The notes beneath the pieces are model-generated. The model saw only the letters and a list, made by a program, of their open reading frames with translations. It was not told the origin of the DNA and made no database searches. Shown here in pieces: positions 10,297-28,437 of a stretch of 64,000 nt of DNA (its first letter is position 1; every line of letters starts with the position of its first letter). Where the stretch lies: NCBI GenBank assembly GCA_016179745.1, contig JACPCP010000019.1:3190-67189 (forward strand). The letters are read 5' to 3'. Source of the DNA: Candidatus Omnitrophota bacterium (lineage in GTDB: Bacteria > Omnitrophota > Omnitrophia > Omnitrophales > JACQLI01). The position numbers and the translations under genes were made by a program.

Positions 10297-10372
10297 GGTG
10301 AGCGTAGCTCAACCTGGTTAGAGCACTAGATTGTGGATCTAGGGGTTGCGGGTTCAATTCCCGTCGCTCACC
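10297..10372 (+). tRNA. tRNA-His (GTG)
   Basis: Extra 5' G(-1), acceptor GTGAGCG/CGCTCAC, anticodon stem CTAGA/TCTAG with loop TTGTGGA, T-loop TTCAATT. Confidence 0.9.
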
Positions 10373-10375
10373 CAG

Positions 10376-10616
10376 CTTTTTTCAGCCGAGTGTTTTTTAC
10401 GAGGCTAGAAAAAAGCTGCCCCAGGAGGAGCGCAGCGACGACGCGGGGCGTCCTTCAAATAATCTCCGTTTCTTTTCAGCCGAACGTTTTCCAGTGAGGC
10501 TAGAAAAGAAACGTCCCGAGGAGTCCTAAAGGACGACGAGGGACTTCCTTAATCCCAGCTCGAATTGGGGCTGTCCCAGGAGGCGTCCCGAAGGGACGAC
10601 GACGAGGGACTTCCTT
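10376..10616. repeat. degenerate tandem palindromic repeats (about 95-nt period, 2.5 units) directly 3' of tRNA-His
   Basis: Unit 1 (10376-10456) and unit 2 (10471-10550) share TTTTCAGCCGARYGTTTT..GAGGCTAGAAAA followed by a G(T/C)CCC(A)GGAG..hairpin..GACGACG.GGG.C.TCCTT module. A third copy of the second module lies at 10569-10616. Confidence 0.6.
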
Positions 10617-10665
10617 CGAGGCCGCGGAGGGCCGCAGAAGATTCTGCCTGGGCCTAAAATGGTCC

Positions 10666-11778: not shown

Positions 11779-11936
11779 AAACGCCTCATAATCGCTTCAT
11801 ATTTAGAAACAATTATGCCCTCTAATTGCTTCCTCTGCAAGGGGAAATAATTCAGGAATTTCGGCGTCTGCCCCATCTTGGGTTGCATTTGATTGTTGGG
11901 CTGAGAAGAAGGAAAAAAATATGGGATTTTTGTTTG

Positions 11937-12107
11937 CTAGGGCTCAGCAGGGACAATCTTCTCTAACTCTGCCACGAGAGGCTGGAGTTCCTTGATGACT
12001 GTGTCCCACACGACGTCTTCATCAACATTCATATAGTCGTGGACGACTTTATGACGCATTCCCACAATGGCCTTCCAGGGGATTTGAGCCCGCATAAACC
12101 AAGTCAT
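11937..12107 (-). pseudogene. truncated HEPN (DUF86-type) toxin remnant, 56 codons
   Basis: My own translation: MTWFMRAQIPWKAIVGMRHKVVHDYMNVDEDVVWDTVIKELQPLVAELEKIVPAEP. It keeps the Rx4H motif (RHKVVH) and the C-terminal helices but lacks roughly the N-terminal half of a normal ~110-aa DUF86 protein. Its ATG overlaps the MNT stop. Confidence 0.55.
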
Positions 12108-12409
12108 CCTTCTGCATACTGGACCTCAGCCTCGGTCAGGACCCGATTACGGATGCGGCGATTCAGGAAGCCCGGAGTCACCAAATCCGGGCGGTGCCCC
12201 TTCACCAGGGGGGAAAGTTCTTCCTCAATCTGATACAAACGGATAAATCCAGGTGTATGCCCTGGTTCAAACTCCACGAGGACATCCACATCGCTCGTGG
12301 GACGGAAATCCTCGCGAAGCACGGATCCAAAGAAAGCCAACCTTCGGATATGATTTCGGCGGCAGAATTCTGCCATTTTTATTCTGTCAATAGAGATTCT
12401 GGTTTTCAT
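12104..12409 (-). CDS. nucleotidyltransferase-domain protein (MNT-type antitoxin of HEPN/MNT pairs)
   Basis: 101-aa ORF; FFGSVLREDFRPTSDVDVLVEF = GS..(D/E)xD minimal nucleotidyltransferase signature. Confidence 0.85.
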   Translation of the reverse strand: MKTRISIDRIKMAEFCRRNHIRRLAFFGSVLREDFRPTSDVDVLVEFEPGHTPGFIRLYQIEEELSPLVKGHRPDLVTPGFLNRRIRNRVLTEAEVQYAEG

Positions 12410-12522
12410 TTTTTACGGCTCCGATTTGACCGAATTCTACCATAGGAATCGGACAAAACAGGCCTTTCTTTAATCTTCCTGCCAGTAACGCCCAAGCGCT
12501 GCCAGCAGGTCTCTCTTCCCGC

Positions 12523-12770
12523 TCACTTCCCCTTCACGAGCCAGTCCATCCACGCCTCCATCTCAAAATAACTCTGGAGGACCCCGAGCTGGATCAGGGT
12601 GTTGCGGTCATAGGAAAATCAAAGGTGCCTGTCCCCATTTCCTTCCATTTCCCTTCATCACGCACCGGAATAAACTTCTGCTTCGGCGTCAGCATCACCT
12701 TCTGCCCAGCTACGTACCGGAGCAATACTTCAAAATCGTGTGTGAGAGCTGTTTGATCAGAATTGTTCAT
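12523..12770 (-). pseudogene. small ORF translationally coupled to the nuclease gene, apparently frameshifted in a T-run
   Basis: ATG at 12770 overlaps the nuclease stop (ATGA). Frame 0 gives 58 aa (MNNSDQTALTHDFEVLLRYVAGQKVML...GTFDFPMTATP*). A protein-like continuation (FSYDRNTLIQLGVLQSYFEMEAWMDWLVKGK*) follows in another frame. Adding one T to the GATTTTCC run would join them into about 82 aa. Confidence 0.3.
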
Positions 12771-13438
12771 TTTGATCCCTGATGCTTTCCAAGCCAGGCG
12801 CAGTATTCGCAGGAACCGTTAGTGGCGGGAAGGGGTCCTCTTAAAAGAGCAGCCGCTTTCCGAAGGGTCGTCCGGGCCCGTTCCGGATCTGTGGAGATTT
12901 TAACGGCTTGAAGTTCAAAGAGAACGTTCCCTTGCTCCCCCACGCTCTTTGGTGAGTAGTAAAGAAGGAAGGCATAACCGGCAATCGGCATCTTGTTTTC
13001 GTGAAGGAGCAGGGTATAGCAATCAAGTTGATTCTGGTAATACTTGACGGCATCCGCTTCTGTCGTGACCGAGCCTTTGGTCTTGTAATCAAAGGGAATA
13101 TATTTGCCGTCTTTGACCAACAGGTCATCAATGGCCCCGCTTAAAATCGAACCATCGCCGTCCCGGTATTCAAGTCCCGTGCGCCAATTGCGCCATTTCT
13201 CAAGCTGCCCCTGATCTGCAAACAAGTTAATGCCGTCAAATTCCGTCTTGTTTAATTCGGCAGGCAGCAAACTTTTTGCCCGAAAGCCGTCAAAATGCGT
13301 CTTGATTACCCGGTCCATACCGCCGGGCAGAGAAGGGAAAATCCCTCGCGGCCGCTTGACGCTCTTGACTTTATCAAACCAGAAACACCTCGGGCATTCG
13401 AGGAAGAGATTAAGTGCAGACGGAGACAATCGAATCAT
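12767..13438 (-). CDS. Cas4-like PD-(D/E)XK nuclease family protein
   Basis: The ORF is open to 13525, but the likely start is MIRLSPSALNLF.. (13438). Has the D..(D/E)xK core (GAIDDLLV...IPFDYKTKG), the QxxxY-like YYQNQLDCY, and N-terminal CPRC plus C-terminal CEYC cysteine pairs. Confidence 0.8.
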   Translation of the reverse strand: MIRLSPSALNLFLECPRCFWFDKVKSVKRPRGIFPSLPGGMDRVIKTHFDGFRAKSLLPAELNKTEFDGINLFADQGQLEKWRNWRTGLEYRDGDGSILSGAIDDLLVKDGKYIPFDYKTKGSVTTEADAVKYYQNQLDCYTLLLHENKMPIAGYAFLLYYSPKSVGEQGNVLFELQAVKISTDPERARTTLRKAAALLRGPLPATNGSCEYCAWLGKHQGSK

Positions 13439-13578
13439 GGCTTTATTTGTGCCGCAACTACCCCTCTTTTTTGCCCCCGCTGCTTTGCCGTCCGAAGCCG
13501 AAAGGCAAACGTGGGCACGGCGCACCTTTTTCGGCGGACAGCGGCCTCAATCTGGGTAGTAGATGGTTTTTTGTCATT

Positions 13579-15441
13579 TTAACTGAAATTTACATCCTGT
13601 AAAAACTCAGAAAGGCCAACTTGGCTGTATCTTACTCCCCCAATGGTTACTGTTCGAACGCTCCGGGTGTAATGTCCACGAGACTGTCGGAAGGGTATAT
13701 TTCTGCTCCAGCTCACAGTCAACCCTTTCTTAGCTCTCGTAACGCCAACAAACAAAAGTCTGCGTTGTTCTTGTTTGTATTCGTGATCCGTCAGATATAC
13801 GGAGCGGTTATCGCCGGGGATGTTGCCGTCGTTGCATCCCATTATAAAAACGTGTTCTGCTTCCAATCCTTTCGAGGCGATAAGCGTCATTACTCTGACA
13901 ACTCTTCCTCGCGTTTCAAGTGTCCGAGAATAATCAAGAAATTTAGAATAAAGAATTTGGATGGTATCTCCTTCTTCTCTGAGTTCCGTAAATATACTTC
14001 TGAGGTCTGCCAATTCCTCGTTCGTGGATGGAATAATTTCATCCATCAATTCGCCCAAGTTTGTACTATCCTTGTGCTGCTCGACAAATTGCCTTATTTC
14101 CTGTAAGTGTGTGCAAAGTGCTCTAAGCTTCCTTTTCCGTCTATCAAAATCATCCCGATCAGCTCTTTGAATGGCTTCCCGTACATTTCCGTATTTCTGT
14201 TTCAGTTGTGCAAACTCAACGGAATAATTGTTCCGATTCTTCAAACCTGCATAGGTTCTTATTCTCAAAATGGAATTTGGCTTCGCAACGACACCAAGTA
14301 GAAGAATCTTTTCCTGCTCAATTTCGGAGTATTCGTTCTTTACGACAAACTTGAATGACAAAGCATCGGGAAGCTGTTGAGTTTTTGTATACTTTACAAA
14401 TTCAGCCCCTAATTTTTTTCGCGGGACAAGCACGATAATATCTTTTGGGTCTGTTTCATTCTGTATTCTTTGGAGAATAGCATTGAAAACAAAGCCGAAT
14501 TCGTCATCCTGTTTCTCCTTTTGCTCCAGCGAAATTTTTCCTTCAATGGCGTCCGGCAATGGCATCAAAAAGTTTGTTCTGCTTGGATTGCCTTGTCGTA
14601 GTAATTGATTCGCAACATTGAGAATTTTCTTTGCGCAACGGCCAGAATACGTTAGAGAGTGTTTTTCAACGCTACCTGATTCAGCAAGTGAAATTATCCC
14701 CTCGGGATAGGCATATTTAAAGCTGTATATGGACTGATCCGGGTCGCCCACAGCCAAAACCAGCTTGGAATTTGCGCCGAGCAAAGCAACGAACTCTTGC
14801 TCAAGCTTGTTTAAGTCTTGGTACTCGTCAACAAAAATATATTGGAGCTTTTCGATAAAGTCTGATCTGAGTTTCTTCGCCAAGTCAACAGCGTGATAAA
14901 CAATTTCTTCCATCATTGCCGCTTCGTGTTCATCAAGCCAATTTATAACAGCCGCCTTAAAACTTTTCCGGGCATCATCCTCATTAAATACTTCGTCGTG
15001 CGGTCTCACCGCCCATCCAGCACTAAATTCATCCAACATCCGTTTGAGTTCGCGTTTGTCGGTGCGGGGAAATAAGATCTTCAGATCAGAGAGGATTATT
15101 TGCTTTTCAAAATCTATCACGATTGACTCAACTCTTTTTCTAATATCGTGGTTGTCTTCTGAAAGTAAAAAGGAAAGACAAATCGAATGCAGAGTTGAAG
15201 CGCGAGGAACCCTGTCAAAGTCTTTTATCCTTTCTCGCAGGTCTTGGGCCGATAAACGTGAAAAGGAAATTATGAAAACTTCTTCCGTGTCAATTCCATG
15301 ATCCGCAATGATCTGCTTGGCTTTGGGCACCAGAATACCCTTTGTTTTTCCGCTTCCAGGTCCTGCGATAACGCAGATTTTTTGAGCGGACGAGGCCAGA
15401 ATTTCTTCAAACTGCGGGGTATTACCATTCATATTGCTCAT
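13579..15441 (-). CDS. UvrD/PcrA-like superfamily 1 DNA helicase
   Basis: 620-aa ORF with Walker A AGPGSGKT, motif II FVDEYQD, motif III VGDPDQSIY, later motifs LIASKGLEAEHVF and LLFVGVTRAKKGL. Markedly AT-rich compared with neighbouring genes. Confidence 0.9.
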   Translation of the reverse strand: MSNMNGNTPQFEEILASSAQKICVIAGPGSGKTKGILVPKAKQIIADHGIDTEEVFIISFSRLSAQDLRERIKDFDRVPRASTLHSICLSFLLSEDNHDIRKRVESIVIDFEKQIILSDLKILFPRTDKRELKRMLDEFSAGWAVRPHDEVFNEDDARKSFKAAVINWLDEHEAAMMEEIVYHAVDLAKKLRSDFIEKLQYIFVDEYQDLNKLEQEFVALLGANSKLVLAVGDPDQSIYSFKYAYPEGIISLAESGSVEKHSLTYSGRCAKKILNVANQLLRQGNPSRTNFLMPLPDAIEGKISLEQKEKQDDEFGFVFNAILQRIQNETDPKDIIVLVPRKKLGAEFVKYTKTQQLPDALSFKFVVKNEYSEIEQEKILLLGVVAKPNSILRIRTYAGLKNRNNYSVEFAQLKQKYGNVREAIQRADRDDFDRRKRKLRALCTHLQEIRQFVEQHKDSTNLGELMDEIIPSTNEELADLRSIFTELREEGDTIQILYSKFLDYSRTLETRGRVVRVMTLIASKGLEAEHVFIMGCNDGNIPGDNRSVYLTDHEYKQEQRRLLFVGVTRAKKGLTVSWSRNIPFRQSRGHYTRSVRTVTIGGVRYSQVGLSEFLQDVNFS

Positions 15442-15577
15442 AATGAGATGCTTGGCTTAATAATCTTAATCCTCTTCCCCGGCGTTAAGCTGAAGGATCG
15501 GAAATATGCCATGCTTTTCCCGCTTATTAGAACGGTCAACGTCGGGCATTCCGAGGCAGTTTTTCGGAGCGTGGATA

Positions 15578-18319
15578 TCAGGTCAGGGAATTTGCTAATT
15601 GAGGCTTGCTCACAACATCAAAAAGGTTCTTCGGATCATCCAGAACCTTAAACTCCCATTTCCCGAAGTTGCCGCTCGTGTTGACGGCGGCAATCCATTC
15701 TTTGGCGGCCTGCCATTTGGCCTTGTCTTGTTCCTTGGTCTGGCCTTTGATTTCGAGAATCAAATGACAATTGTCTTCAAATTTGATGATGTAATCCGGG
15801 TAATAGGTTTTGCTCTGCCCCTGCCAAAGATAAAAGATTTCAAAACCCAAATGGTCGTTCTTGGCCCATGAGACAAGACCGGGAATCCGATCCCGTTCAA
15901 ATTCAAGCCCGGCTTTCTCCCAGCCGCTGTCGATCACGATATGACTGATCTGGCTCTTTCTCACCGGCTGGGTCGGTTTGCTCGTATACCAGGTCATTGC
16001 GCTGGCCGTGCCGCGCTTCGGACGGACGGAATCGAGAACCGGAGTCGGTGCCTCTTTGCTCGAACTCCTGATAAAATATCCAATGTGGTTGATGATCTTT
16101 TGAACGTTAAGCGCGACGACGATTTTCCTTAATTTTTCCGTGCCGGAAAATTTCGGCACTTTGATATCCAGCTTATCCGAAACCAAAAATTCATCGACTA
16201 ACTGCATCAGCTGTCCTATCTGACTGCCGGCATCGCCTTCCCAGTTTTCACTAAATTGTTCCCGGAGACGGGCGGCCGCTTGAAGCTTCAAAGTCTGTAA
16301 TCGCTCGCTATCGGCCAGCCGGTCAAGATTCACTTCGCTGATTTGGTCGAATTTTGGCTTCCCGTCGATCACAGGAGCAACCTCAACAATCGTGGGGGCG
16401 TCCTCGGGTGAAAGTGTCAGTTTCTCAAGCTTACCCCAATCGAGATCAAGAAAATAATTGAGTTTATACTCAATCCGTAAAACATGCGGCCATCCAATCT
16501 CAAAATTTTTTCTTTCCGGAATAGGTGCTATTTTTGTCTTCGGCTTTTCAACGCGCGGGGGCCCCTCTTTTTGTTCCGCCGGCAAAAATGTGAACGGCAC
16601 ACCGAAAACCGTCACGTATTCGGGTTCATACAAACCCGTCTCTTCGTTGACATCATAGGAAATACGACGGAGGCCGCGTCCGATGACCTGTTCGCAAAGG
16701 AGCTGACTTGTAAACGCGCGCAGACCAAGGATGTGCGTAACGGTTCGCGCGTCCCAACCTTCAGATAGCATATTCACACCGATAACACACCGGATATCCT
16801 GCCCCGATCTGCCGACCTTGCCGACCGTGTTAAACTTCTCCCTTTCCTGTTCAACAAGTTCACGGCCCGTTTTCTCAAAGACCATTTTCTCCTCCTCGGC
16901 GGATTCAAGCTTATCAAGCGCGTCCTGATCGATCCTTATCAAACGATCGATATCGCCCAATTCCTCAATCGAAAGGTAACCCTGTGTCAATGAATGTTCG
17001 ACCCGTGCGGCCGTTTCAATGCGGTTGCAGATAATGATCATGACAGGCGGCGTTTCCCTCGGAGGATTTTGCTTTTCCCAGCTTTCTTTTTCTTTCAGCC
17101 AGTCTCCCCCCAAAATGTTCAGGGCATTTCTTACAAGATCAGGCAGGCCTTCGTGGGGCTGAGCCCTCCGGTTTAAATCCTCTTTCACGGAAGGATAAAT
17201 ATGAAAAAGCTTGGACTTAAGATCGGACCCGACTGCCGAATCGTCTCTCACTGCCACTTTGGGGGTTTTAACCAGTCCGCTTTCAATGGCATCGTTAAGC
17301 CCAAAATCGCTCACAACCCAAGTAAATAATTGTTCTTGCTGGTTCATCTTTCCCGTGGGTTTAAAAGGCGTAGCTGTAAGATCATAAGCCCGAAGAACAC
17401 CGCGTGCCTTATGAATCCGGTCGATACCGCTTATCCAGATAGTCGCTTTTTGCTTCTCGGTTTTCTCTTCGTCCTGATCGGGCCGGTGACAGTGATGGGC
17501 TTCATCATTGATCACCAAAATATTGGACGCATTGCCAAACTCGGACAAAACCCTTCGGGAGAAAGCTTCATCGCTTTCGGGGCCCTTCTTTACGACTTTC
17601 GGGCCGTAATTTTCATTGATAGGCGCAAGGGCGTGCCAGTTCTTAACCAGGATTTTCGCCTGTAAAAGCTCCTGCCACATTGCGGAATCGACTAAAACAA
17701 AACTCTGATAAAAATTTTCCCCATTTTCCGGCAGAAGAACCTGGAGCCGGTCGCGGACTGTCAAGCCCGGAGCGATGATAAGGATATTTTTTGAAAAGCG
17801 GGGATCCTTCGGGTTGGCAATTTTGTTGAGCGCCTGCCAAGCAATCAGCATGGCCATCACGACGGTTTTCCCAGTTCCTGTCGCAAGCTTAAGGCACTGC
17901 CGCTCCCATGCGCTTCCGTCGTTTCCGATCTCTATCCCTTGGCGCTCAGCAGCGCTTGCCTCGGTAAGCCAAATGGCCGTTTCGACCGCCTCCATCTGAC
18001 ACCAAAAGAGTCTTAGCACCCGCTGGCTCGGGTCTTGCCAGAATTGTAGAAGCTTTTTTGTCACGCCCGTGACATTCGGATAACCATTTTCTCGCCATTG
18101 TTTGACACGCGGGCGGATTTGATTGACCAATTCAATTTCAATGAATTCACCGGGATCGTCGAAATTATTCGCTGTCCGTGCCGTTGCACGCCAGTAACCC
18201 GACCTCCGGCGGCCCGGTTTTCTCTGAAATTCCTGAGTTTCGCGGATATAAAACCAGTGTTCCTTTGGCTCCCCATATGGGCTGTTGATGATTAATTGGT
18301 CAATGCCTTTTTGTCCCAT
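15578..18319 (-). CDS. res: type III restriction endonuclease, Res subunit (SF2 helicase + C-terminal PD-(D/E)XK)
   Basis: 913-aa ORF; ATGTGKT Walker A, VINDEAHHCH DEAH box, C-terminal PDYIIKF..LILEIKG nuclease motif; begins 4 nt after mod. Confidence 0.9.
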   Translation of the reverse strand: MGQKGIDQLIINSPYGEPKEHWFYIRETQEFQRKPGRRRSGYWRATARTANNFDDPGEFIEIELVNQIRPRVKQWRENGYPNVTGVTKKLLQFWQDPSQRVLRLFWCQMEAVETAIWLTEASAAERQGIEIGNDGSAWERQCLKLATGTGKTVVMAMLIAWQALNKIANPKDPRFSKNILIIAPGLTVRDRLQVLLPENGENFYQSFVLVDSAMWQELLQAKILVKNWHALAPINENYGPKVVKKGPESDEAFSRRVLSEFGNASNILVINDEAHHCHRPDQDEEKTEKQKATIWISGIDRIHKARGVLRAYDLTATPFKPTGKMNQQEQLFTWVVSDFGLNDAIESGLVKTPKVAVRDDSAVGSDLKSKLFHIYPSVKEDLNRRAQPHEGLPDLVRNALNILGGDWLKEKESWEKQNPPRETPPVMIIICNRIETAARVEHSLTQGYLSIEELGDIDRLIRIDQDALDKLESAEEEKMVFEKTGRELVEQEREKFNTVGKVGRSGQDIRCVIGVNMLSEGWDARTVTHILGLRAFTSQLLCEQVIGRGLRRISYDVNEETGLYEPEYVTVFGVPFTFLPAEQKEGPPRVEKPKTKIAPIPERKNFEIGWPHVLRIEYKLNYFLDLDWGKLEKLTLSPEDAPTIVEVAPVIDGKPKFDQISEVNLDRLADSERLQTLKLQAAARLREQFSENWEGDAGSQIGQLMQLVDEFLVSDKLDIKVPKFSGTEKLRKIVVALNVQKIINHIGYFIRSSSKEAPTPVLDSVRPKRGTASAMTWYTSKPTQPVRKSQISHIVIDSGWEKAGLEFERDRIPGLVSWAKNDHLGFEIFYLWQGQSKTYYPDYIIKFEDNCHLILEIKGQTKEQDKAKWQAAKEWIAAVNTSGNFGKWEFKVLDDPKNLFDVVSKPQLANSLT

Positions 18320-18322
18320 GTC

Positions 18323-20842
18323 TTACTCCAGTTTCTTAATCACAAACGATTCGATGCCGCGGTTGTCAATGATTTTGACCGCGATCTTTTTGTTTTCGCC
18401 GGCATTGAAGGGCAGGGACTCAACGCCTGTAAATTTCTCAAGGAGATCTTCGTTCACTTCGCCGTTCAGCGCTTTGGCAAGGCGGGTCCAATCACGTTTG
18501 TGATCGCTTTCAGGAAAGAATACCTGACCCGGATAAAGACTTCGCTCGTCATAATCCGTATCAAGAAACCACATGGCAATGTGCTTGGTACCTTTTGATT
18601 CAATTTCACCGCTCACCGGATTGTAATAGTCAAATCCGTGAACCTCGACTTTATATTTGCCGTCCTTCTGTTTGATCACTGCCACGTCCGGCTGGCCGAT
18701 CAGCCAATAGCTCTGACTTGAGGATCGCTTTTTGCGAAGGTCTTTGGTAAGAAGATCCACGCTCATTTGCGCCTTCAGTATTTTCACGCCGGGCCAGTTG
18801 ATCTCGTCGATATCCTTTGCCGCTTCCGGGTCAAAATGAAAAGCCGCAAAGATGACAAAATCCGGCTTTTCTTTTAAGCTCCGCGCTTCTTTGAGTCCCT
18901 CTTCCACCTGTCTCTGCTCTATGGGCCCGTAATCAGGGCCGAAGCTGATATAAGCGCGCTTCGTCGTATGGTCTGATTCGAGAATTTCTCCCTCGGCGTG
19001 GAGAAAACGGGTTGCGGCCATCGGTTCGATTCTTGAAAAGTTCACGATCTTCCCGCCGACGGCTCGAATCCCTGTTGCTTTGAGTTCATCACACCACTCC
19101 GCCTGTTTGCCGGTTTCATCCGTGCGGGCCAAATCTTCACTTTTTGCTTTAACCTTCGGCTCCTTGCCGTCAAACGGCCTGACACGCAGGGAAGGCACAG
19201 CTTCGACGGTAAAAGGCCCGGTTACTCTGATTTTATTTTTTTCTACGAAAGGTTGATCGTAGAGGATTTCTTCTTTCGGCGGTTCGTTGTTGGCAATAGC
19301 GCCAAGAGTGATGTGCGGAACGGTTTTATATTTGAAGCCGCTTTTTACACCTTCGTTCGGATATGCGAGTTCAAAGTAATCGAACTTGGCGGTCATCAGT
19401 CTTTGTTTCGCAAGCGTGATTGCAACACGCGACGTGTCACAGGTAATCCAGCGCCGTCCCCATTGCTCGGCGACAAAAGCCGTGGTGCCTGAGCCACAAG
19501 TCGGGTCAAGAACAAGATCACCGGGGTCAGTGGTCATTAAAATGCATCGTTGAATAACTTTTGGATTTGTCTGCACAACGTAAATCATTTCTGGAGTAAC
19601 AGCCGCATCATCCCATACATTAGTTAATTCAAATACAGGAAATTCGTCGAGATACTTTACCAACATCAATCTTGCTCCGGTTGAAACAAGTCTATTTTTT
19701 GAAACTAAACCACGCAATTTGTCAGGATTCCAACTTCTATTCGCGGGAGGCAAATATCGCTTGCCTTCAAACTCGAAAAGTTCGCGGTTACCTCCGGTTC
19801 CTTGCGACGTTACGTCAACTAATTGATAAAGACGTGCCCCTTCCGGAATCAAAGAAGAATTTTGTTTCTCTTCTTTGCTTAAAGGTCTTCTTGTTCCATT
19901 TGGTAGTTCTAGTTGATCATACCTTCTTGCTGGACTGAACTCGTTACCAACGATTTTGTCTACAAATAATTTCCTAAATTTTAGTTTACCTAAACACTTT
20001 CCATACCAGATTAAATAATCACTGACATTTTGAAGTAAGTTTCCGGGCCGAGCCCCAGTTTTTTGAAAAGTAACAACGCCGACAAAATTATCTTGGCCAA
20101 ATGTTTCATCCATCAACGATCTAACAAGATTCAAATTTTCATCTGAAATCTGCACAAAACAGCTCCCACTTTCATGCAAAAGCTCTTTGGTCAGAAGAAG
20201 CCTATCTCGTAAAGATGTGAGATAACTATGTATCCCTAACTCCCATGTATCACGAAACGCTTGAATCATTTCGGGCTCGGCGGGAATGTCGGCATCGTTG
20301 CCGTCCTTGACGTCTCGTTTGTTCACAAATGGCTGAAAGTTTGAGTTGTATTTGATCCCGTAGGGCGGGTCGATATAGATCATCTGCACTTTACCGGCCA
20401 TGCCTTCTTTGTGAAGAAGGGAATTCATGACCAAGAGCGAATCACCGGCAATGAGGCGGTTCGTCCAGTCCTGCTCATGCCGGTAAAAATCAATGGCCTT
20501 GTTTAACGGCGGATCGTTCGCGGGATCTTCAAAAAGAAGAAGCTGCTCCGATTTCTTTTCTTTCGGTTTGAGGAATGCCTTGACCATTCTCTGCGGCTCA
20601 ATTCTTTCGTGGATATGAAGACTGACATTCTGAACCTCAAAGCTCATCCCTTCGGCTTTGCCCGCCCAGCTTAGATAAGGATCAATGTACGGGTCGTGTT
20701 GATACTTCGTTCGGCCGTCCAGTTTATCCGTCGCGCTCGAGACAAGTCCGACATGCGGATTGTTCTTCCGCTTTTTCCCTTTATGGGAATACGTTTCGAC
20801 GGCAACATCTTTCTTCTTGCGGGCGGTTCTTAATTTTGGCAT
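18323..20842 (-). CDS. mod: type III DNA methyltransferase, Mod subunit (beta-class N6A/N4C)
   Basis: 839-aa ORF; motif IV IYIDPPYG (about aa 155-162) precedes motif I DPTCGSGTT (about aa 446-454), with a variable AT-rich segment between them, as in type III Mod proteins. Confidence 0.9.
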   Translation of the reverse strand: MPKLRTARKKKDVAVETYSHKGKKRKNNPHVGLVSSATDKLDGRTKYQHDPYIDPYLSWAGKAEGMSFEVQNVSLHIHERIEPQRMVKAFLKPKEKKSEQLLLFEDPANDPPLNKAIDFYRHEQDWTNRLIAGDSLLVMNSLLHKEGMAGKVQMIYIDPPYGIKYNSNFQPFVNKRDVKDGNDADIPAEPEMIQAFRDTWELGIHSYLTSLRDRLLLTKELLHESGSCFVQISDENLNLVRSLMDETFGQDNFVGVVTFQKTGARPGNLLQNVSDYLIWYGKCLGKLKFRKLFVDKIVGNEFSPARRYDQLELPNGTRRPLSKEEKQNSSLIPEGARLYQLVDVTSQGTGGNRELFEFEGKRYLPPANRSWNPDKLRGLVSKNRLVSTGARLMLVKYLDEFPVFELTNVWDDAAVTPEMIYVVQTNPKVIQRCILMTTDPGDLVLDPTCGSGTTAFVAEQWGRRWITCDTSRVAITLAKQRLMTAKFDYFELAYPNEGVKSGFKYKTVPHITLGAIANNEPPKEEILYDQPFVEKNKIRVTGPFTVEAVPSLRVRPFDGKEPKVKAKSEDLARTDETGKQAEWCDELKATGIRAVGGKIVNFSRIEPMAATRFLHAEGEILESDHTTKRAYISFGPDYGPIEQRQVEEGLKEARSLKEKPDFVIFAAFHFDPEAAKDIDEINWPGVKILKAQMSVDLLTKDLRKKRSSSQSYWLIGQPDVAVIKQKDGKYKVEVHGFDYYNPVSGEIESKGTKHIAMWFLDTDYDERSLYPGQVFFPESDHKRDWTRLAKALNGEVNEDLLEKFTGVESLPFNAGENKKIAVKIIDNRGIESFVIKKLE

Positions 20843-20867
20843 AGAAATCCAATCGTTCTTAACGTGA

Positions 20868-21119
20868 TTAGAGAAAGTAACCTGTTAATGTACCGGTAGA
20901 GGTTGTGCTTGTGCCCACCATGATGGCCCTTTCACCGCTACCCGGATTAGAAGGGCGATGATCTTCCTGGTGGGTATGTTTTGACAAGTGCCCAATGTGA
21001 TCATGGCAATTACCACAGAAGGCGTAATAGACACTCGGCCCTATCTCAGCGCTAAAAAACAATATCGCCACCCCACAGCAGACGCATTTTAGAAATGATG
21101 AAGACTTATAAGAATCCAT
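20868..21119 (-). CDS. hypothetical small Cys/His-rich protein upstream of mod
   Basis: 83-aa ORF ending 25 nt before the mod start, on the same strand. Contains CVCCG..CGNCHDHIGHLSKHTHQEDH. No family recognised, so coding status is uncertain. Confidence 0.3.
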   Translation of the reverse strand: MDSYKSSSFLKCVCCGVAILFFSAEIGPSVYYAFCGNCHDHIGHLSKHTHQEDHRPSNPGSGERAIMVGTSTTSTGTLTGYFL

Positions 21120-21189
21120 GTGCTTTACTCCTTTAAAATTTTCCGCGCGTCATTTCACAAATTACCAGCAGCCTCAATGCTCTGGATAA

Positions 21190-21219
21190 AAAATTGCTTT
21201 GATTTTACCGCAGAATCAG
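21190..21219. repeat. 30-bp exact direct repeat, copy 1 (AAAATTGCTTTGATTTTACCGCAGAATCAG)
   Basis: Identical 30-mer found again at 24529-24558. This copy lies in the intergenic region upstream (minus sense) of the small-ORF/mod/res operon. The minus-strand read contains GGTAAAATC (a -10-like TAAAAT). Confidence 0.7.
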
Positions 21220-21305
21220 CCGCTTTTCAGCTTGAATCTGCCAAATTTTCCAGCGGTACATAAGAACAACGGAACGGCGCCCCGGAGGAGGGGCTGGGCT
21301 CCTAT

Positions 21306-22343
21306 TCAAATCCGCACGGCGAGGGCGGCCTTGAGAAGTTCGTTTGTGAGGAATTTTTCGCCGGAGCCGGAGGAGTAGAAGATATCGGCGAGGTAGCGGT
21401 CGTATTTGTCGGAGCGGGTGCTCGAGATCGTAACGTAGGGGACGCCGGCGAGTTCGGATTCGACAAATTTCTTCGCGCGCTTCCCCGCGGGGGTATCGAG
21501 CTCCGGCGCATCGATCCCGCGCAGCCGGAGGTATTGGCGGGTCGAGCAGCCGAAACCGAGGTCGACCTCGGCAATGACGGTGTCGCCGTCAACCGCCCTT
21601 TCAATGAAGGCATAATAGGTGAAAAGGTCGGCCTCGATTTTTCCCGACGCCCGTTTCAGGCGGTAAGTGTCGCCTTCCACCCATTCGGAAACCACAATCT
21701 CGCCCGCCCGGAGGCCTTCCGCCCCCTTCATCGCGGCGTCCTTCCGGCTGGAAAATCCCAAATCGATCTTGAGGCCGGCCTTTCCGGGATGAATTTTTTC
21801 GGGGCGGGCCAGGCGGTAAGTGTAGGGGACGCCTTTCCGGGGCTGGAGGAGGGCGCGGTCTCCGGGAGGGAAGGTCCGGCCTTTTGATTTCCCGTCTTCT
21901 TCCCGGGCCTCTGTTTTGATTTTTTCAATCAGGCGGCCGGTGGTCCAATCCCCCTCTTCGGCACGGCGGGCCAGCTCAAAACGCTGTTTGTCGTCGGAAA
22001 CCGCAATCAGTTCGCGGTAGTGGGTCCACCTCAAATTTCTCCGCGCGGAGAAATTTGGGAAAGACTCGGCGAACCGCATGGTCCGGTAAAGGACCTTCTC
22101 CCCGATTTCAAGGTCGCGCGAAAGCCGGAGCACCACTTGTCTGCCGTATTCCGCATCTTTTTTGCCGGGGTAAGCGCGCCGGAGGTGGCGGTTGATGAGG
22201 TCCCCGGTGCGCCAGTAGCTGAGCACCTTCTCCCGTTCAATCCGCTGCTGGGCAAGGAGGAGGGTCTTTTTGACGGCTTCCCGGAGGCGGGTGTAGCCGC
22301 CCATCAGGGCGCTTCGAGTTGGGGTCAATGCGGTAGTTGTCAT
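21306..22343 (-). CDS. DUF1016 N-terminal domain fused to a staphylococcal-nuclease (SNase/thermonuclease)-like domain
   Basis: The N-terminal ~150 aa resemble the YhcG/DUF1016 N-domain (..VLSYWRTGDLI...AEYGRQVVLRLSRDL....LRWTHYRELI..DD..R..LARRAEEGDWT...L). The C-terminus has SNase hallmarks (VDGDTVIAEVD...LRLRGIDAPE...GKRAKKFV...DKYDRYLADIF). Confidence 0.75.
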   Translation of the reverse strand: MTTTALTPTRSALMGGYTRLREAVKKTLLLAQQRIEREKVLSYWRTGDLINRHLRRAYPGKKDAEYGRQVVLRLSRDLEIGEKVLYRTMRFAESFPNFSARRNLRWTHYRELIAVSDDKQRFELARRAEEGDWTTGRLIEKIKTEAREEDGKSKGRTFPPGDRALLQPRKGVPYTYRLARPEKIHPGKAGLKIDLGFSSRKDAAMKGAEGLRAGEIVVSEWVEGDTYRLKRASGKIEADLFTYYAFIERAVDGDTVIAEVDLGFGCSTRQYLRLRGIDAPELDTPAGKRAKKFVESELAGVPYVTISSTRSDKYDRYLADIFYSSGSGEKFLTNELLKAALAVRI

Positions 22344-22424
22344 AACGGCCGGAATCAGGCCGTTATTCTACTTCAATCGCAGGCCAAAAACATCCCAAGA
22401 AATAGGAACCCCTATCAGGAGGTT

Positions 22425-22748
22425 TCACCCTTTGAAGGAAACTTCGATCTCCTGGGCAACCTTTCGAGGCAGGAGGGTGGCTTTGATCTTCATGGTGTAA
22501 CCGATGTGGAGCAGAATCTTCTCGAGGGTGGTCACACTGGAAAATTCGCCGCTCTCGACTTTTGAAATATGCTGCTGAGTGACTCCGGCTCTCTTCGCGA
22601 GCTGGTTTTGGCTGAACTTGTGCTTGATCCGGTATTCGATGATCTTCTTTACGATCGCAAGCTTCTGCTCTTCCAGCTCGTAAAGCTCCCTGAAATACGG
22701 GTCCTTCAGCTCTTTTTTGAGATGGTCTTCAACCCGTTCTGTTCCCAT
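22425..22748 (-). CDS. higA: XRE-family HTH antitoxin (HigA-like)
   Basis: 107-aa ORF; HTH FSQNQLAKRAGVTQQHISKVESGE; follows the toxin gene by 13 nt. Confidence 0.75.
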   Translation of the reverse strand: MGTERVEDHLKKELKDPYFRELYELEEQKLAIVKKIIEYRIKHKFSQNQLAKRAGVTQQHISKVESGEFSSVTTLEKILLHIGYTMKIKATLLPRKVAQEIEVSFKG

Positions 22749-22761
22749 TTTATTCTTTTCC

Positions 22762-23109
22762 TTATTTCATTCCTTCGTCGTACAGTTTCCGTCTCTGAAC
22801 CGCCGTTTCAATTTCGGTCTTCGGGGTCTTATTCTTTTTCTTGATAAATCCGTTCGTCAAAACCGCCTTACCCCGATCAAAAAAGTATAAAACCCGAATC
22901 GCCCCTTCTCTTCCTGAAAACCTCAATTCAAAGACCCCTTCCCCGAGACGCTTTGCATGGGGCATTGGAAGCCGGTGTCCGAATTCCTCCAGCAGCCTCC
23001 GGACATAGAAGAATTTCAACCGGGTCCTCATGTCTAAAGAATCGATAAACTCTTCCACTGGGAGCCGGCCGGAGCCGGTCGAAAAATAATGGCAGACGAC
23101 GCCCGTCAT
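22762..23109 (-). CDS. higB: RelE/ParE-superfamily toxin (HigB / phage Gp49-like, DUF891)
   Basis: 115-aa ORF; ..VEEFIDSLD...R.K......LEEFG...P.PHAKRL.EGVFELRF....AIRVLYFF..GKAVLTNGFIKK..KTP.. pattern of Gp49-like toxins; toxin-first order typical of higBA. Confidence 0.75.
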   Translation of the reverse strand: MTGVVCHYFSTGSGRLPVEEFIDSLDMRTRLKFFYVRRLLEEFGHRLPMPHAKRLGEGVFELRFSGREGAIRVLYFFDRGKAVLTNGFIKKKNKTPKTEIETAVQRRKLYDEGMK

Positions 23110-23261
23110 GGAAATCTCTCCTTCTTGGGATGAAATAAAATGAAGCTTGAATTAGGTTCATTTCGATGGACCTCCTGCCAAAGGATACAACCAATCAGTT
23201 GTAATTTCAAGGGGTCTCTTCCAGTCCTAGCTGCGGCAATGATTGCCACAAAACCCTCCTT

Positions 23262-23391
23262 TTTGGTTCGGAGGGCAAGGCGGGATCTTCCGGCTTTTAT
23301 GCACCCGGCACCGATGTGCCGAGTACCGTCACGCAAGGACCAAGGAAGTCCTTGCGTTCCGGCAGGACGATGAAATCGCCCGCAACCCTGA
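23262..23391. repeat. structured intergenic repeat, copy A
   Basis: Shares a 77-bp identical core (23287-23363) with copy B (24335-24411): CTTCCGGCTTTTATGCACCCGGCACCGATGTGCCGAGTACCGTCACGCAAGGACCAAGGAAGTCCTTGCGTTCCGGC. The core contains hairpins GGCAC-cgat-GTGCC and ACGCAAGGAC-caaggaa-GTCCTTGCGT. The flanks are similar but have indels. Confidence 0.8.
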
Positions 23392-23396
23392 AGCGG

Positions 23397-23657
23397 TTAA
23401 AATTTTACCAAAGACCGGCGTTTTCTTCGAGATGAAAGGCTAACGGGAATAAAATTTATCGTCCCCCAAAGGCCGCAACGGGGACAGACGGTGGGAACAG
23501 GGTTCCTTTGCAACTGCTCATATCGATTCTTCATCCATTGAGGTGCGTAGGAAATCATGTCTGCCTGTTCCGACATCGTTCCCACACTGTAAGTGTATCG
23601 AGGCCAGAATTGAAATTCGAGCCCCCGGTATCGGCACTTCCGGCAGCGGTAGAACAT
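23397..23657 (-). CDS. hypothetical zinc-ribbon protein (third gene of the brnTA-like operon)
   Basis: The ORF is open to 23678, but the likely start is MFYRCRKCRY.. at 23657, 4 nt after the brnA stop. Two CxxC pairs (CRKC ... CPRC). No family recognised. Confidence 0.45.
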   Translation of the reverse strand: MFYRCRKCRYRGLEFQFWPRYTYSVGTMSEQADMISYAPQWMKNRYEQLQRNPVPTVCPRCGLWGTINFIPVSLSSRRKRRSLVKF

Positions 23658-23661
23658 CGAT

Positions 23662-23916
23662 TCAGGCCTGGGCGGCACGGTGAAGAAGCTCGGAGATAAA
23701 GGTCTGATATTTCACCCCGAGCTTTCCTGCCTTCTCTTTCAGGTTTTCGAGGTCCCCGCTGTTGACCCGGATATTGAGCACGGCATCTTTTCGGCGGGCT
23801 TGAATCGCCTCGGCGATCTCTTTGAACCGCTCCGGGCCTGAGTCAACATATTCTCCCCTCATGGCCGCTTCTTCGATTTCTCTTTCCATTCTTGTAAGCT
23901 TGATTCGTCTTTTCAT
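23662..23916 (-). CDS. brnA: BrnA-like (COG3514, RHH/CopG-type) antitoxin
   Basis: 84-aa ORF; C-terminal ..LNIRVNSGDLENLKEKAGKLGVKYQTFISELLHRAA resembles the BrnA RHH module; overlaps the brnT stop by 4 nt. Confidence 0.7.
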   Translation of the reverse strand: MKRRIKLTRMEREIEEAAMRGEYVDSGPERFKEIAEAIQARRKDAVLNIRVNSGDLENLKEKAGKLGVKYQTFISELLHRAAQA

Positions 23917-24170
23917 AGTTCACCTCGCTCGTATTTCTTTGTGTAATGCCTGCTGGGGTAAGCCGTCTTTAAGAATATCTCGCCCTCTCTCTCCACGAAC
24001 GGGACAACCCAGATATAACCCCTGCGTTCGAACAACATCAATTCTTGTCCGCTCCTTTTTGGGTGTTCCGTCGTCTTGACCAGCCGTTCTCCGAGGATCT
24101 CTTCAAAGGAAACCCCCCTCACCTTCTTGAGCCTCTGATTCTTGAGGGGGTCCCACCGGAGGGCCCTCAT
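23913..24170 (-). CDS. brnT: BrnT-like (DUF497) toxin
   Basis: 85-aa ORF; N-terminal LRWDPLKNQRLKKVRGVSFEE and C-terminal ..IFLKTAYPSRHYTKKY resemble BrnT/DUF497. Confidence 0.7.
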   Translation of the reverse strand: MRALRWDPLKNQRLKKVRGVSFEEILGERLVKTTEHPKRSGQELMLFERRGYIWVVPFVEREGEIFLKTAYPSRHYTKKYERGEL

Positions 24171-24198
24171 AAGACACCCCGATCATAACACAGCACGA

Positions 24199-24210
24199 TT
24201 GTATATACAA
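24199..24210. promoter_or_regulatory. perfect 12-bp palindrome TTGTATATACAA in a putative brnTA promoter
   Basis: Minus-strand read: TTGTATATACAA-tcgtgctgtgt-TATGAT-11 nt-ATG(brnT). The palindrome overlaps a weak -35, and TATGAT is -10-like. The implied leader is very short. Confidence 0.3.
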
Positions 24211-24307
24211 GTGTGAGCACTTGGAAAGACTTCCGGACGGACATAACAATACCCTCCCGACGTTTTTTGTCGTCCCAGGAGGCCCAAAGGGCCGACGTGG
24301 GATTTCA

Positions 24308-24453
24308 TTTGGTTTTTGGAGGGAGAGGCGGGGTCTTCCGGCTTTTATGCACCCGGCACCGATGTGCCGAGTACCGTCACGCAAGGACCAAGGAAGTCCT
24401 TGCGTTCCGGCGGGACGAAGCGGTTTGGGAAGCCGCAACGCCCGCAACCCTAA
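24308..24453. repeat. structured intergenic repeat, copy B
   Basis: See copy A. The 77-bp identical core lies at 24335-24411. This copy carries extra insertions on both flanks relative to A. Confidence 0.8.
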
Positions 24454-24528
24454 AAAATTATGGTAACCCTTCGCCCTGACTCGTCAGGGCTCAGGGCGTT
24501 GCCTGCCATGAAAATCTTGCAGGCAACG

Positions 24529-24558
24529 AAAATTGCTTTGATTTTACCGCAGAATCAG
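24529..24558. repeat. 30-bp exact direct repeat, copy 2
   Basis: Identical to 21190-21219. Lies between the abiEii stop and repeat copy B, and is preceded by two stem-loops (GCCCTGAC-tc-GTCAGGGC and GTTGCCTGC-catgaaaatctt-GCAGGCAAC). Confidence 0.7.
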
Positions 24559-24641
24559 GCCTTTGACCAATCAGATCTCACCCGTAAATCCTCACGGCTT
24601 CTACCGCTTGGGGGCATCCTTTGGATGTCCCCTTGGCTTTC

Positions 24642-25505
24642 TCATTGAAACCTCTTGTCGGATAGAATCGTGTTAAACCGCTCAATGACCTTCTCCAGAT
24701 CAAATTTTTCTCCGGCGCGAATGACCGGCATGAGATGCAAATCAACCTGGTTTCGCAAAAGCGAAAGCTGATCCGCATTCAACCCGAAATCTTTCCGGTA
24801 ATCTCCGGAATAGCCATCGCCGGAGAGTTTGCTCTTGAAAAGCTTAATGAAGCTGCTTTGATAAAAATCAAACCCGGACTCTGCGATATACCAGAGATCG
24901 TAATAATCCCTGGCCGCCGCGTCCCTGCGCGTAATAGCGGCTTTGAGTTTTTCGGCAATCGCCTCGTTTAACGAAAGAGAAAGAACTTTTCCGGGCGGGA
25001 ACAAATCCTCCCCCGTGAAGGGGTCCTGATAGAAGTGTTTGATGACATGATGGACCGGTTTATCAAGCGGCGGCTGGCGAAGAGATATCTCGAGCTTGAC
25101 GCTTTCCTCTCTTCCCATAATGACGGAGAGGTATTTCACTTTAAAAAGATATTGCGTTGAATTATTGAATCCATCTCCGTGAGGTTTATCGCTCGCCACC
25201 CCAAGAGCTTGCAGGAATTCCGGCATTTTCTCCCGGATGGGCGTAATGGCTTTTGACCGCTCGGAACGTGTGGCCAACTCACCGTGAAAGGTAAAATCCA
25301 AATCCTCGCTCAACCGGTGATAGTTGAGGTGAATTTTATTGAGCAGGGTCCCGCCCTTAAAGACGATTCTTTCGCTGAGTCGTGTTTCGATTTGATTGAG
25401 GATCACGGTAAGGTAATAATCTTTTTCGACGATGGCGGGCCGGAATCTCAGTTTGCCGGCAATTGCGGGAATAATATCTTTGAGCTTTTCTCTATCGATT
25501 GACAA
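24642..25505 (-). CDS. abiEii: AbiEii/AbiGii-family nucleotidyltransferase toxin (DUF1814)
   Basis: 287-aa ORF; FKGGTLLNKIHLNYHRLSEDLDFT motif and later Lys/Asp-rich motifs typical of DUF1814 NTases; overlaps abiEi by 14 nt. Confidence 0.85.
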   Translation of the reverse strand: MSIDREKLKDIIPAIAGKLRFRPAIVEKDYYLTVILNQIETRLSERIVFKGGTLLNKIHLNYHRLSEDLDFTFHGELATRSERSKAITPIREKMPEFLQALGVASDKPHGDGFNNSTQYLFKVKYLSVIMGREESVKLEISLRQPPLDKPVHHVIKHFYQDPFTGEDLFPPGKVLSLSLNEAIAEKLKAAITRRDAAARDYYDLWYIAESGFDFYQSSFIKLFKSKLSGDGYSGDYRKDFGLNADQLSLLRNQVDLHLMPVIRAGEKFDLEKVIERFNTILSDKRFQ

Positions 25506-26274
25506 TGACTTGCCACTCCTTATTTGTCTTCCCCTGCCGTGATGGGTTAAAGGGATTGAGAAGTACGATGGTTTTTGCCGTTCCGATACTTTTTTTCAAA
25601 CCTTCAAGCGACTTATTCTTGCACCCGAGTTCATCGAGTAAAAAACCGGCTCTTTTACGAACTGAAACAACGGGAAACTGTTTGAGATAGCGGATAAATT
25701 TTTCGACATCAATTTCTTTAAGAGCCGTTTGCAAAGCGGATTCGAAGTTGCTGATCGATCCTAAAGGGTTATACGCAAAGTCCACCAAGGTCCGTTCTTT
25801 ATCGCTGATACAAACTTCCTGATCTTCAATCTTGATTTTTTGAACACCGTAATATTTGCTTTGATCAATCTTGACCGCTTCATAACGAATACCCTGGATC
25901 ACGGTTTTGCGGGACTTCGCGGTATTTAAAACGAAAATGGTTCGCGGAATTTGCTCGGTGAATCCCCAGTAGTTGTACATCGTGAAATAACCGATATAGT
26001 AAGGTGCCTCTCCCATCCAAAGACTGGCAAGTATGAACTCATTCGGCATCCACTGCTGATTCGGCGCCTTGATCGGAACAAGCACATACTTGCCCTTCTC
26101 GATTTTAAGAAGACGTCCTTTTTTCGTAAGGAAGAACAAAACCCTGGATGCCTTATTTTTGTCAGGAAAGAGTTTTTGAACAAATCGGGTGGTAATGAGT
26201 TTTTGCTTTTCAAACTCCGCGCGAGAAATTAAATAAAGCTCGTCTTTTGAGAGATTTTTATAGCTGTTTTTCAT
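25492..26274 (-). CDS. abiEi: AbiEi-like type IV TA antitoxin / wHTH regulator
   Basis: 260-aa ORF; N-terminal wHTH-like segment (..ASRVLFFLTKKGRLLKIEKGKYVLVP); sits directly upstream of and overlaps the AbiEii gene. Confidence 0.75.
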   Translation of the reverse strand: MKNSYKNLSKDELYLISRAEFEKQKLITTRFVQKLFPDKNKASRVLFFLTKKGRLLKIEKGKYVLVPIKAPNQQWMPNEFILASLWMGEAPYYIGYFTMYNYWGFTEQIPRTIFVLNTAKSRKTVIQGIRYEAVKIDQSKYYGVQKIKIEDQEVCISDKERTLVDFAYNPLGSISNFESALQTALKEIDVEKFIRYLKQFPVVSVRKRAGFLLDELGCKNKSLEGLKKSIGTAKTIVLLNPFNPSRQGKTNKEWQVIVNR

Positions 26275-26291
26275 AGTTTATCCTGTTTAAT

Positions 26292-26314
26292 GAAGTTGCG
26301 ATATTCGTAACTTC
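26292..26314. promoter_or_regulatory. 23-bp imperfect palindrome upstream of abiEi (candidate operator)
   Basis: GAAGTTGCGA-tat-TCGTAACTTC has 10-nt arms with one mismatch. It lies 18-40 nt upstream of the abiEi start. Confidence 0.4.
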
Positions 26315-28353: not shown

Positions 28354-28437
28354 GTCCCACCGAAGGTGGGGCGGGCGCAGAAACTCATCTCGGCACTCCC
28401 CTTTACCTAGCAGTCCCACCGAAGGTGGGGCGGGCGC
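28354..28437. repeat. two copies of a 25-bp GC-rich hairpin element (GTCCCACCGAAGGTGGGGCGGGCGC)
   Basis: Exact copies at 28354-28378 and 28413-28437. Each contains CCCACC-gaag-GGTGGG. They sit between tatA and tRNA-Arg. Confidence 0.7.

Follow-up and report, generated by a model that had tools for sequence, protein, structure and literature searches.

The window analysed here is a 64,000-nucleotide (nt) stretch of contig JACPCP010000019.1 (assembly GCA_016179745.1, positions 3,190 to 67,189) from a Candidatus Omnitrophota bacterium, and our subject is an intergenic element that is present in it in two near-identical copies, each lying 5′ of a toxin–antitoxin (TA) operon (Table 1). Copy A is situated between a Zn-ribbon open reading frame (ORF) and gp49/higB, and copy B between abiEii and brnT; all of these genes are on the minus strand, which is also the sense strand of the element. 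A repeat search of the window identifies one long direct repeat, 104 nt of 95% identity without gaps (23267–23370 against 24315–24418) at a spacing of 1048; the identity is far above the chance level, and the only other exact repeats of 20 nt or more in the window are one of 30 nt and one of 25 nt. The same-orientation repeat pair and its gene context are thus as a first-pass annotation of this DNA described them. That annotation gave the exact block as 77 bp, and while the identity holds, the block is 78 bp long. Two hairpins seen in the block read as described, GGCAC-CGAT-GTGCC and ACGCAAGGAC-CAAGGAA-GTCCTTGCGT, and the flanks are, as stated, related with indels. The extents given for the copies (23262–23391 and 24308–24453) are incomplete, as the element runs further on its sense-strand 3′ side, to 23247 in copy A and 24242 in copy B, and this added part holds a Shine–Dalgarno (SD) sequence, the hairpin that pairs it with an anti-SD, and a start codon. 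No third copy is present in the window, as judged by low-stringency blastn and an unfiltered covariance-model scan. ORFs in several frames cross the 78-bp block, yet a 14-nt indel between copies A and B destroys any frame common to both, and a protein search with a spurious 66-residue ORF across the element, meant to catch copies called as genes, found no homologue.

Table 1. Positions in the window of the two element copies, their parts, and the neighbouring genes and sites; R1 is the covariance model described in the text.
Feature	Position	Strand	Remarks
Copy A, whole element	23247–23389	−	From 5′ AGGGUUG to SD and GTG start, 5′ of gp49/higB; R1 match of 45.8 bits over the full model
Copy B, whole element	24242–24451	−	From 5′ AGGGUUG to SD and ATG start, 5′ of brnT; R1 matches, alignment with relatives
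78-bp identical block, copy A	23286–23363	−	Accessory hairpins P3 (23331–23357) and P4 (23301–23326), and the P5 5′ strand
78-bp identical block, copy B	24334–24411	−	P3 24379–24405, P4 24349–24374
P2 hairpin, copy A	23362–23383	−	GCGGGCG-AUUUCAU-CGUCCUGC
P2 hairpin, copy B	24410–24445	−	Longer stem-loop in place of the tip
P5 hairpin, copy A	23276–23298	−	AAAAGCCGG...CCGCCUUG; predicted by RNAfold when the SD is unavailable
P5 hairpin, copy B	24324–24346	−	Pair counts, RNAfold
Anti-SD/SD hairpin, copy A	23254–23275	−	Anti-SD CCCUCC 23270–23275, SD GGAGGG 23254–23259, then UUUU, GTG 23247–23249; in the minimum free energy fold
Anti-SD/SD hairpin, copy B	24252–24323	−	Anti-SD 24318–24323, loop with 49-nt insert 24258–24307, SD 24252–24257, ATG 24242–24244
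25-codon upstream ORF, copy B	24167–24244	−	Start 7 nt past the SD; TGA overlaps the brnT ATG (ATGA)
47-codon upstream ORF, copy A	23106–23249	−	Start 4 nt past the SD; TGA overlaps the higB ATG
brnTA proximal promoter and palindromic operator	24194–24215	−	TTGTAT-17-TATGAT; CACACTTGTATATACAATCGTG; 3′ of the element and not part of it; direct reading
higBA proximal promoter-like site	23182–23210	−	TTGAAA-17-TATCCT; 3′ of the element; region conserved in L033
abiEi	25492–26274	−	
abiEii	24642–25505	−	
brnT	23913–24170	−	
brnA	23662–23916	−	
Zn-ribbon ORF	23397–23678	−	Uncertain gene; two CxxC pairs
gp49/higB	22762–23109	−	
HTH (helix-turn-helix) antitoxin	22425–22748	−	
DUF1016-SNase	21306–22343	−	PADLOC PDC-S02

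Both copies are probably members of an uncatalogued family of leaders lying directly 5′ of the first ORF of addiction modules, namely toxin-first TA operons (brnTA and gp49/higBA) and at least one methylase-first restriction–modification (RM) operon. Relatives were found by way of contigs encoding the same or related flanking proteins, and the family now stands at 8–9 members from about seven contigs, those with relatives coming from Omnitrophota-like metagenomes. The element lies 5′ of brnT homologues whose products are 79% (L014), 73% (L021) and 67% (L024/L025) identical to that of the window, and 5′ of a 74%-identical gp49 in L033/L034/L035/L036 (member L033a). Contig L033 has a second copy (L033b, L033:10542–10625) 5′ of a Dcm methylase and EcoRII-C operon, where GGAGGG is 8 nt before the called methylase ATG and is its only SD sequence, and in L022 the element precedes a called 101-residue ORF, itself followed by gp49 and the HTH gene, and supplies the start codon of that ORF. 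All nine known members are in the sense orientation relative to the downstream gene, and those of L014 and L024 are single copies among housekeeping genes. The locus of the window itself recurs on Logan contigs of runs SRR12113385–SRR12113432, where the contigs break inside the repeat; at least one run of this series, SRR12113421, served as source data for an endosymbiont genome (10.1101/2024.02.19.580942).

These relatives bear directly on the plainest explanation, that an intergenic segment was duplicated locally in the recent past and that the similarity means nothing more. The window does hold just two copies, 1048 bp apart and in the same orientation; however, the flanking coding sequences (brnT and gp49) are unrelated, and the presence of relatives on at least five unrelated contigs, including one 5′ of a third type of gene, refutes it, such that we regard it as exceedingly unlikely. 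The earlier annotation had allowed that no further copies might exist, which did not turn out to be the case.

Exact core patterns (a 36-mer and a 23-mer) and a degenerate 3′ module match no copy in 185,579 GTDB representative genomes, the JGI metagenomes or IMG/VR, and distant blastn searches of plasmids and phages returned just one 32-nt chance match. Two patterns for the 5′ motif gave 13 loci in IMG/VR; apart from L030/L031, these lie in GC-rich coding sequence and match by chance, and the single locus in IMG/VR with a relative of brnT (32% identical) is uninformative for the element. No match to either copy or to four relatives was found among the 4227 families of Rfam 15, either at the gathering thresholds or at E values up to 10, and a literature search revealed no earlier description of such an element.

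The core has the same order in all members, reading 5′ to 3′ (A/C)GGGUUG, hairpin P2, a junction, hairpin P5, the anti-SD CCCUYC, an A-rich loop, the SD GGAGGG (AAGGGGGG in L021 and L024) and a start codon. The base of P2 is GYGGGCG..CGUCCYGC with a tip of 5 to 21 nt, P5 reads AAAAGYCGG.., and the A-rich loop of the SD hairpin often contains AACC. The start codon follows GGAGGG by 4–8 nt in every member, and is ATG in five, GTG in two and CTG in one. Every large insertion is confined to one of four places, namely the tip of P2, the P2–P5 junction (J2/5), the P5 loop and the loop of the SD hairpin; copy B is enlarged, both by its long P2 tip and by an insert of 49 nt.

Pairing was evaluated in an alignment of eight sequences that were trimmed, N-padded and registered by hand, since MAFFT alignments of untrimmed or trimmed cores were out of register. 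In these eight hand-aligned sequences 89.6% of the cells form standard pairs, compared with 41–59% when the 3′ partners are slid by 1–3 columns; both partners vary in 6 of the 21 pairs, a count that one of 500 shuffles reaches, and the covariation score of 0.206 is reached in none of 500. The informative pairs are one in P2 (C-G, U-G, U-A), four of the eight in P5 (e.g. G-C/G-U/A-U, C-G/U-A and G-C/C-G) and one in the anti-SD:SD helix (C-G, U-G, U-A); this last helix is kept in all members, and the basal stem of P2 is kept in six relatives, with a mini-stem in two. Covariance model R1, built from six of the eight aligned sequences, recovers members outside its training set, scoring L033a at 25 bits, L022 at 17 bits and L001, a strain allele described below, at 39 bits. 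Folding of both strands, a check proposed in the first-pass annotation, gives z scores of −5.3 for the sense and −2.9 for the antisense strand of copy A, −5.7 and −2.9 for copy B, and −4.3 and −2.9 for L033b; in the two window copies the sense strand folds much better because several stems use G-U pairs. Of the interpretations offered in that annotation the shared structured RNA is the one that gains support, from the fixed orientation of the relatives, the constant start-codon spacing, the compensatory pairs, and the placing of insertions in loops and junctions.

One candidate from the pattern searches was not counted as a member. Viral contig L030 (IMG/VR UViG_3300025889_000485) reads AGGGUUGCGGGCG..GUCCCGC at positions 6699–6753, and immediately after this come a CCCUC/GAGGG hairpin and an ATG. 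P5 is absent and the R1 score is just 14 bits; the locus may be distantly related or may match by chance.

Hairpins P3 and P4, which are the two hairpins of the identical block, occupy the junction between P2 and P5 and are conserved less than any other part of the element; the earlier emphasis on them was correct as to their presence, but they are not its conserved core. They are absent from L014, L033a, L033b and L022, and also from L001 as far as its truncated contig extends, and L021 and L024 have unrelated hairpins within the P5 loop instead. L001 (L001:1–76, Logan SRR12113429) is a strain-level allele 5′ of an identical brnT, of mosaic make-up: its P2 tip is that of copy A, its 3′ part is that of copy B, and the 49-nt insert is absent; the contig is cut at its 5′ end. 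Copies A and B are identical at 78 of 78 positions in the block, whereas their homologous flanks differ at about six positions in 30 nt and the P2 tip has been replaced. This disparity, and the existence of an allele apparently without P3/P4, suggest that the identity arose by gene conversion between the copies, or by insertion, in recent times, and not from conserved function or strong selection on P3/P4. The 49-nt insert has GTCCCAGGAGG..hairpin..GACG.GGGA in common with degenerate tandem units of about 66–95 nt at 10379–10616, beside tRNA-His at the opposite edge of the defence island, a likeness which suggests a small mobile or recombining hairpin repeat.

It is here that a selfish repeat comes into question, of the kind of miniature inverted-repeat transposable elements (MITEs) or repetitive extragenic palindromic (REP) sequences, having no regulatory role and lying 5′ of TA operons by chance. 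An identical 78-bp core between differing flanks and the presence or absence of P3/P4 and the 49-nt insert between strains would be in keeping with it, as would the resemblance of that insert to the repeats beside tRNA-His, which implies that small hairpin repeats move or recombine in this genome. This is plausible for the accessory inserts only, however, and leaves the conserved core unexplained: there are neither terminal inverted repeats nor target duplications, in that no inverted repeat pairs the ends of the element and the flanks of copies A and B have no common target, the orientation and the distance to the start codon are constant, and the core is kept 5′ of homologous genes whose proteins are just 67–79% identical. 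The pattern searches of the GTDB representatives, JGI metagenomes and IMG/VR likewise found no copy. We therefore consider a MITE, one of the possibilities raised in the first-pass annotation, to be very unlikely as an account of the element.

The core can adopt two predicted folds. With the SD constrained to remain unpaired, or with the RNA truncated immediately 5′ of it, RNAfold predicts a closed P1(GGG:CCC)–P2–P5 junction in five of the eight members (L033b, L014, L033a and copies A and B). The minimum free energy fold of the full-length RNA has the anti-SD:SD hairpin instead, and this is more stable than the junction fold by 8–11 kcal/mol; in L033b the SD hairpin is of 12 bp and also captures the P5 3′ strand. 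The predicted structures are mutually exclusive in the manner of a riboswitch, with the anti-SD paired either to the 5′ GGG or to the SD, and the layout is that of a modelled translational switch whose resting state would be OFF. A pseudoknot between the 5′ GGUU(G) and the AACC of the SD-hairpin loop was also considered but was not adopted, the shuffle test being weak (per-loop fractions of 0.01–0.97, with a combined p of about 0.03 by a rough Fisher estimate).

In the mechanism that we propose, the 5′ GGG of the nascent RNA would pair with the CCC of the anti-SD, closing the P1–P2–P5 junction and leaving the ribosome-binding site free; once the SD has been transcribed, the more stable anti-SD:SD hairpin would displace P1, and in some members P5 too, and would block initiation. 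The balance between the folds would be set by a ligand, a protein or the kinetics of folding. At the TA loci the gated ORF would be a short upstream ORF (uORF), and the toxin would be affected by translational coupling, since the uORF stop overlaps the toxin start codon at the brnT loci and at copy A. At the four brnT loci (copy B, L014, L021 and L024) the start codon of the element opens an ORF of 19–25 codons whose TGA overlaps the brnT ATG (ATGA), and the distance from the uORF start codon to the operator is 12 nt at three of them and 30 nt at the other, in each case divisible by three despite differing sequence. At L033a the uORF ends 13 nt inside gp49, and its counterpart in L034 is called as a 62-residue gene. 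The uORFs were also considered as conserved proteins and rejected as such, as the peptides agree just at conserved promoter, operator or SD DNA, and those of copy A and L033a differ in frame.

Our best reading, held with middling confidence, is thus that the element is a cis-acting translational switch belonging to a new family of SD-masking structured leaders; its transcription, its switching and its trigger are what we infer from the predicted folds and the conserved layout. Several observations weigh against it. First, the sequences are few, and their register and trimming were set by hand with the structure in mind, such that the pair counts are biased towards structure; P1 and most pairs of the SD helix are invariant and show nearly no covariation, and the fold z scores are ordinary in several minimal members (L014 −1.6, L033a −1.5 and L024 −0.1). 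Secondly, the element is absent 5′ of brnT in L015 and L022, and 5′ of gp49 in L037. Thirdly, the ORF gated at the TA loci encodes a short, non-conserved peptide, and the supposed start codon of one member is CTG. Fourthly, promoters 5′ of the element are predicted weakly, and brnTA and higBA keep sigma-70-like promoters with palindromic operators 3′ of it, also at loci that lack the element (L015 and L022). The promoter and operator of brnTA, TTGTAT-17-TAnnnT overlapping the palindrome ACACTTGTATATACA(AGTGT), are kept in L014, L015, L021, L022 and L024 (brnT 66–79% identical) whether the element is present or not. Because these proximal promoters lie 3′ of the element, the main, autoregulated TA transcript may be without it, and the leader would act just on a longer transcript from a distal promoter.

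A direct reading of the DNA upstream reveals −10-like hexamers 7–13 nt 5′ of the element, four of them (copy A, L014, L022 and L024) with a TGn extension of the TGnTAnnnT type, and terminator-like hairpins of the upstream genes precede the element at copy B and L014; both are consistent with a transcript that begins with the element. The same motifs would serve a separate small RNA gene, or a transcriptional insulator or attenuator, having its own promoter and ending at the CCCUCC-loop-GGAGGG hairpin, and acting either in trans (e.g. on TA mRNAs) or by stopping read-through into the toxin gene. With the U run that follows it in copy A (UUUU) and in L014 and L022 (AUUUUUU and UUUUUUU), the SD hairpin looks like an intrinsic terminator and could act as one in these three members as well, and the TA operons have promoters of their own downstream. 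But the U run is absent in five members (copy B, L033a, L033b, L021 and L024), the GGAGGG of L033b is the sole ribosome-binding site of the methylase gene, and a fixed distance of 4–8 nt to the start codon is unexpected for a terminator or a trans-acting RNA. We judge this alternative to be improbable.

An extended form of the translational switch would make the element a new signal-responsive class of RNA switch, answering to a ligand or a protein and common to the BrnTA, HigBA and Dcm/EcoRII RM modules of Omnitrophota, in which the first ORF is gated and, through the overlap of stop and start codons, the toxin as well. This is a tentative proposal that we think rather unlikely to be right. 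In a variant of it the element may also act like attI, as a landing pad from which modules recombining downstream would obtain a ribosome-binding site and a coupling ORF.

The setting of the two copies has to be considered in this light. They lie in a defence island of about 16 kb (window positions 10400–26300) that adjoins tRNA-His (10298–10373) and interrupts the glycogen genes, with GH57 and DUF4912 on one side and malQ on the other; besides the genes of Table 1 its minus-strand genes encode Type III mod and res, a UvrD-like helicase, a PD-(D/E)XK nuclease, a nucleotidyltransferase and Fic/DOC. Near-identical copies at the 5′ borders of successive modules of such an island are what one would expect of a DNA recombination site, whether attC/attI-like or another landing pad, at which TA and RM modules of defence islands would be captured and exchanged. 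L033 likewise has two copies in one island next to different modules, and a mosaic allele lies 5′ of the same brnT in another strain (L001). There is also a precedent in brnTA cassettes with their own promoters in chromosomal integrons, and in the short ORF of attI1 that couples translation to the first cassette (PMC8876359). However, the core sites that define attC, GTTRRRY/RYYYAAC (PMC8876359), are absent, direct reading giving GTTGCGG, GTTGTGG or GTTAAGG at one end only. The element forms several local hairpins (two to five, and a short closing stem) and not one bulged hairpin, and the minimal members L033b and L014 are not palindromic overall. No integrase (Phage_integrase) was found among the 40 window ORFs scanned, chiefly those up to about 40 kb, singletons occur among housekeeping genes (L014 and L024), and the compensatory changes and the G-U pairs of one strand point to RNA. 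The attC/VCR-type boundary suggested in the first-pass annotation is not supported by these findings, and a recombination site of any kind appears very improbable. The wider notion of a cassette boundary is loosely right, although the element is part of the operon that follows it, at the 5′ end, and elsewhere it accompanies brnTA or higBA from genome to genome.

Some further features of the region were noted. The Zn-ribbon ORF beside copy A has no Pfam or PADLOC match and is not among the Logan gene calls, and a search of 1.8 billion representatives gave weak matches, the best with E = 2e-7 to a 1171-residue protein and those to small proteins at E of about 1e-4. The interval from abiEii to copy B holds two GC-rich hairpins and then AAUUUUUU, on the minus strand at 24452–24527; their resemblance to sX12 of Rfam is weak (17 bits, E = 4), and they are probably the terminator of abiE or else a short independent transcript. 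The 30-nt exact direct repeat (32 nt aligned) is at 21190–21219 and 24529–24558; it reads CTGATTCTGCGGTAAAATCAAAGCAATTTT in the sense of the genes and contains a −10-like TAAAAT. One copy is 5′ of an 83-residue ORF (20868–21119) and the other 5′ of the double hairpin preceding copy B, and it looks like a reused promoter module. The 25-nt exact direct repeat, GTCCCACCGAAGGTGGGGCGGGCGC, is located between tRNA-Arg and tatA at 28354–28378 and 28413–28437, each copy with a hairpin CCCACC-GAAG-GGTGGG.

The control of type II TA and RM modules is generally ascribed for the most part to the DNA-binding proteins that they encode, and a leader common to brnTA, higBA and an RM methylase would mean a further layer of control, by RNA, over the synthesis of toxin or methylase, in a poorly known, uncultured phylum. 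Should the element respond to a signal, it would rank as a candidate orphan riboswitch whose neighbouring genes point to phage defence or plasmid addiction and not to metabolism, and we know of few if any riboswitch classes tied to these functions; selfish modules of unrelated kinds would in that case all respond to a single signal in the cell. If it is merely a static SD-masking hairpin it would still be a useful new RNA family for the annotation of Omnitrophota genomes. The swapping of near-identical accessory hairpins and small inserts between copies bears on how defence islands are assembled.

The element resembles several known systems in part. In the pdif modules of Acinetobacter plasmids, TA modules including higBA and brnTA are bounded by XerC/D sites, and these are 28-bp, protein-binding sites that occur as inverted pairs flanking the module on both sides. 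The likeness is in small higBA and brnTA modules being delimited by a repeated site, but our element is a single structured unit of 65–210 nt, on the 5′ side only. Like attC sites of the VCR type it is repeated, structured and beside TA modules in an array-like island, and its short ORF, which has its own SD and ends at the start of the next gene, recalls the coupling by ORF-11 of attI1 (PMC8876359); unlike either, it has no core sites, single bulged hairpin or IntI, and it keeps a fixed distance 5′ of an operon, also as a singleton outside arrays. With MITE and REP repeats such as Correia/NEMIS, ERIC and RUP it shares a short length, a wealth of hairpins, near-identity within a genome, and accessory hairpins and an insert that vary between strains. 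It departs from them in a core that has no terminal inverted repeats or target duplications, holds one orientation and position, and is kept across diverged loci with compensatory changes. The closest parallels are the translational riboswitches and other SD-sequestering leaders (e.g. the SAM-II and preQ1-type pseudoknot switches, and the ROSE and fourU thermometers), to which it corresponds in a 3′ hairpin that pairs anti-SD with SD before the start codon, in an anti-SD that is predicted to pair alternatively with sequence further 5′, and in variable peripheral hairpins around a conserved core. The proposed mechanism is of a known kind, whereas no catalogued family matches; unlike those leaders, the element accompanies TA and RM modules and not metabolic or transport genes, and at the TA loci it would gate a short uORF in place of the main gene.

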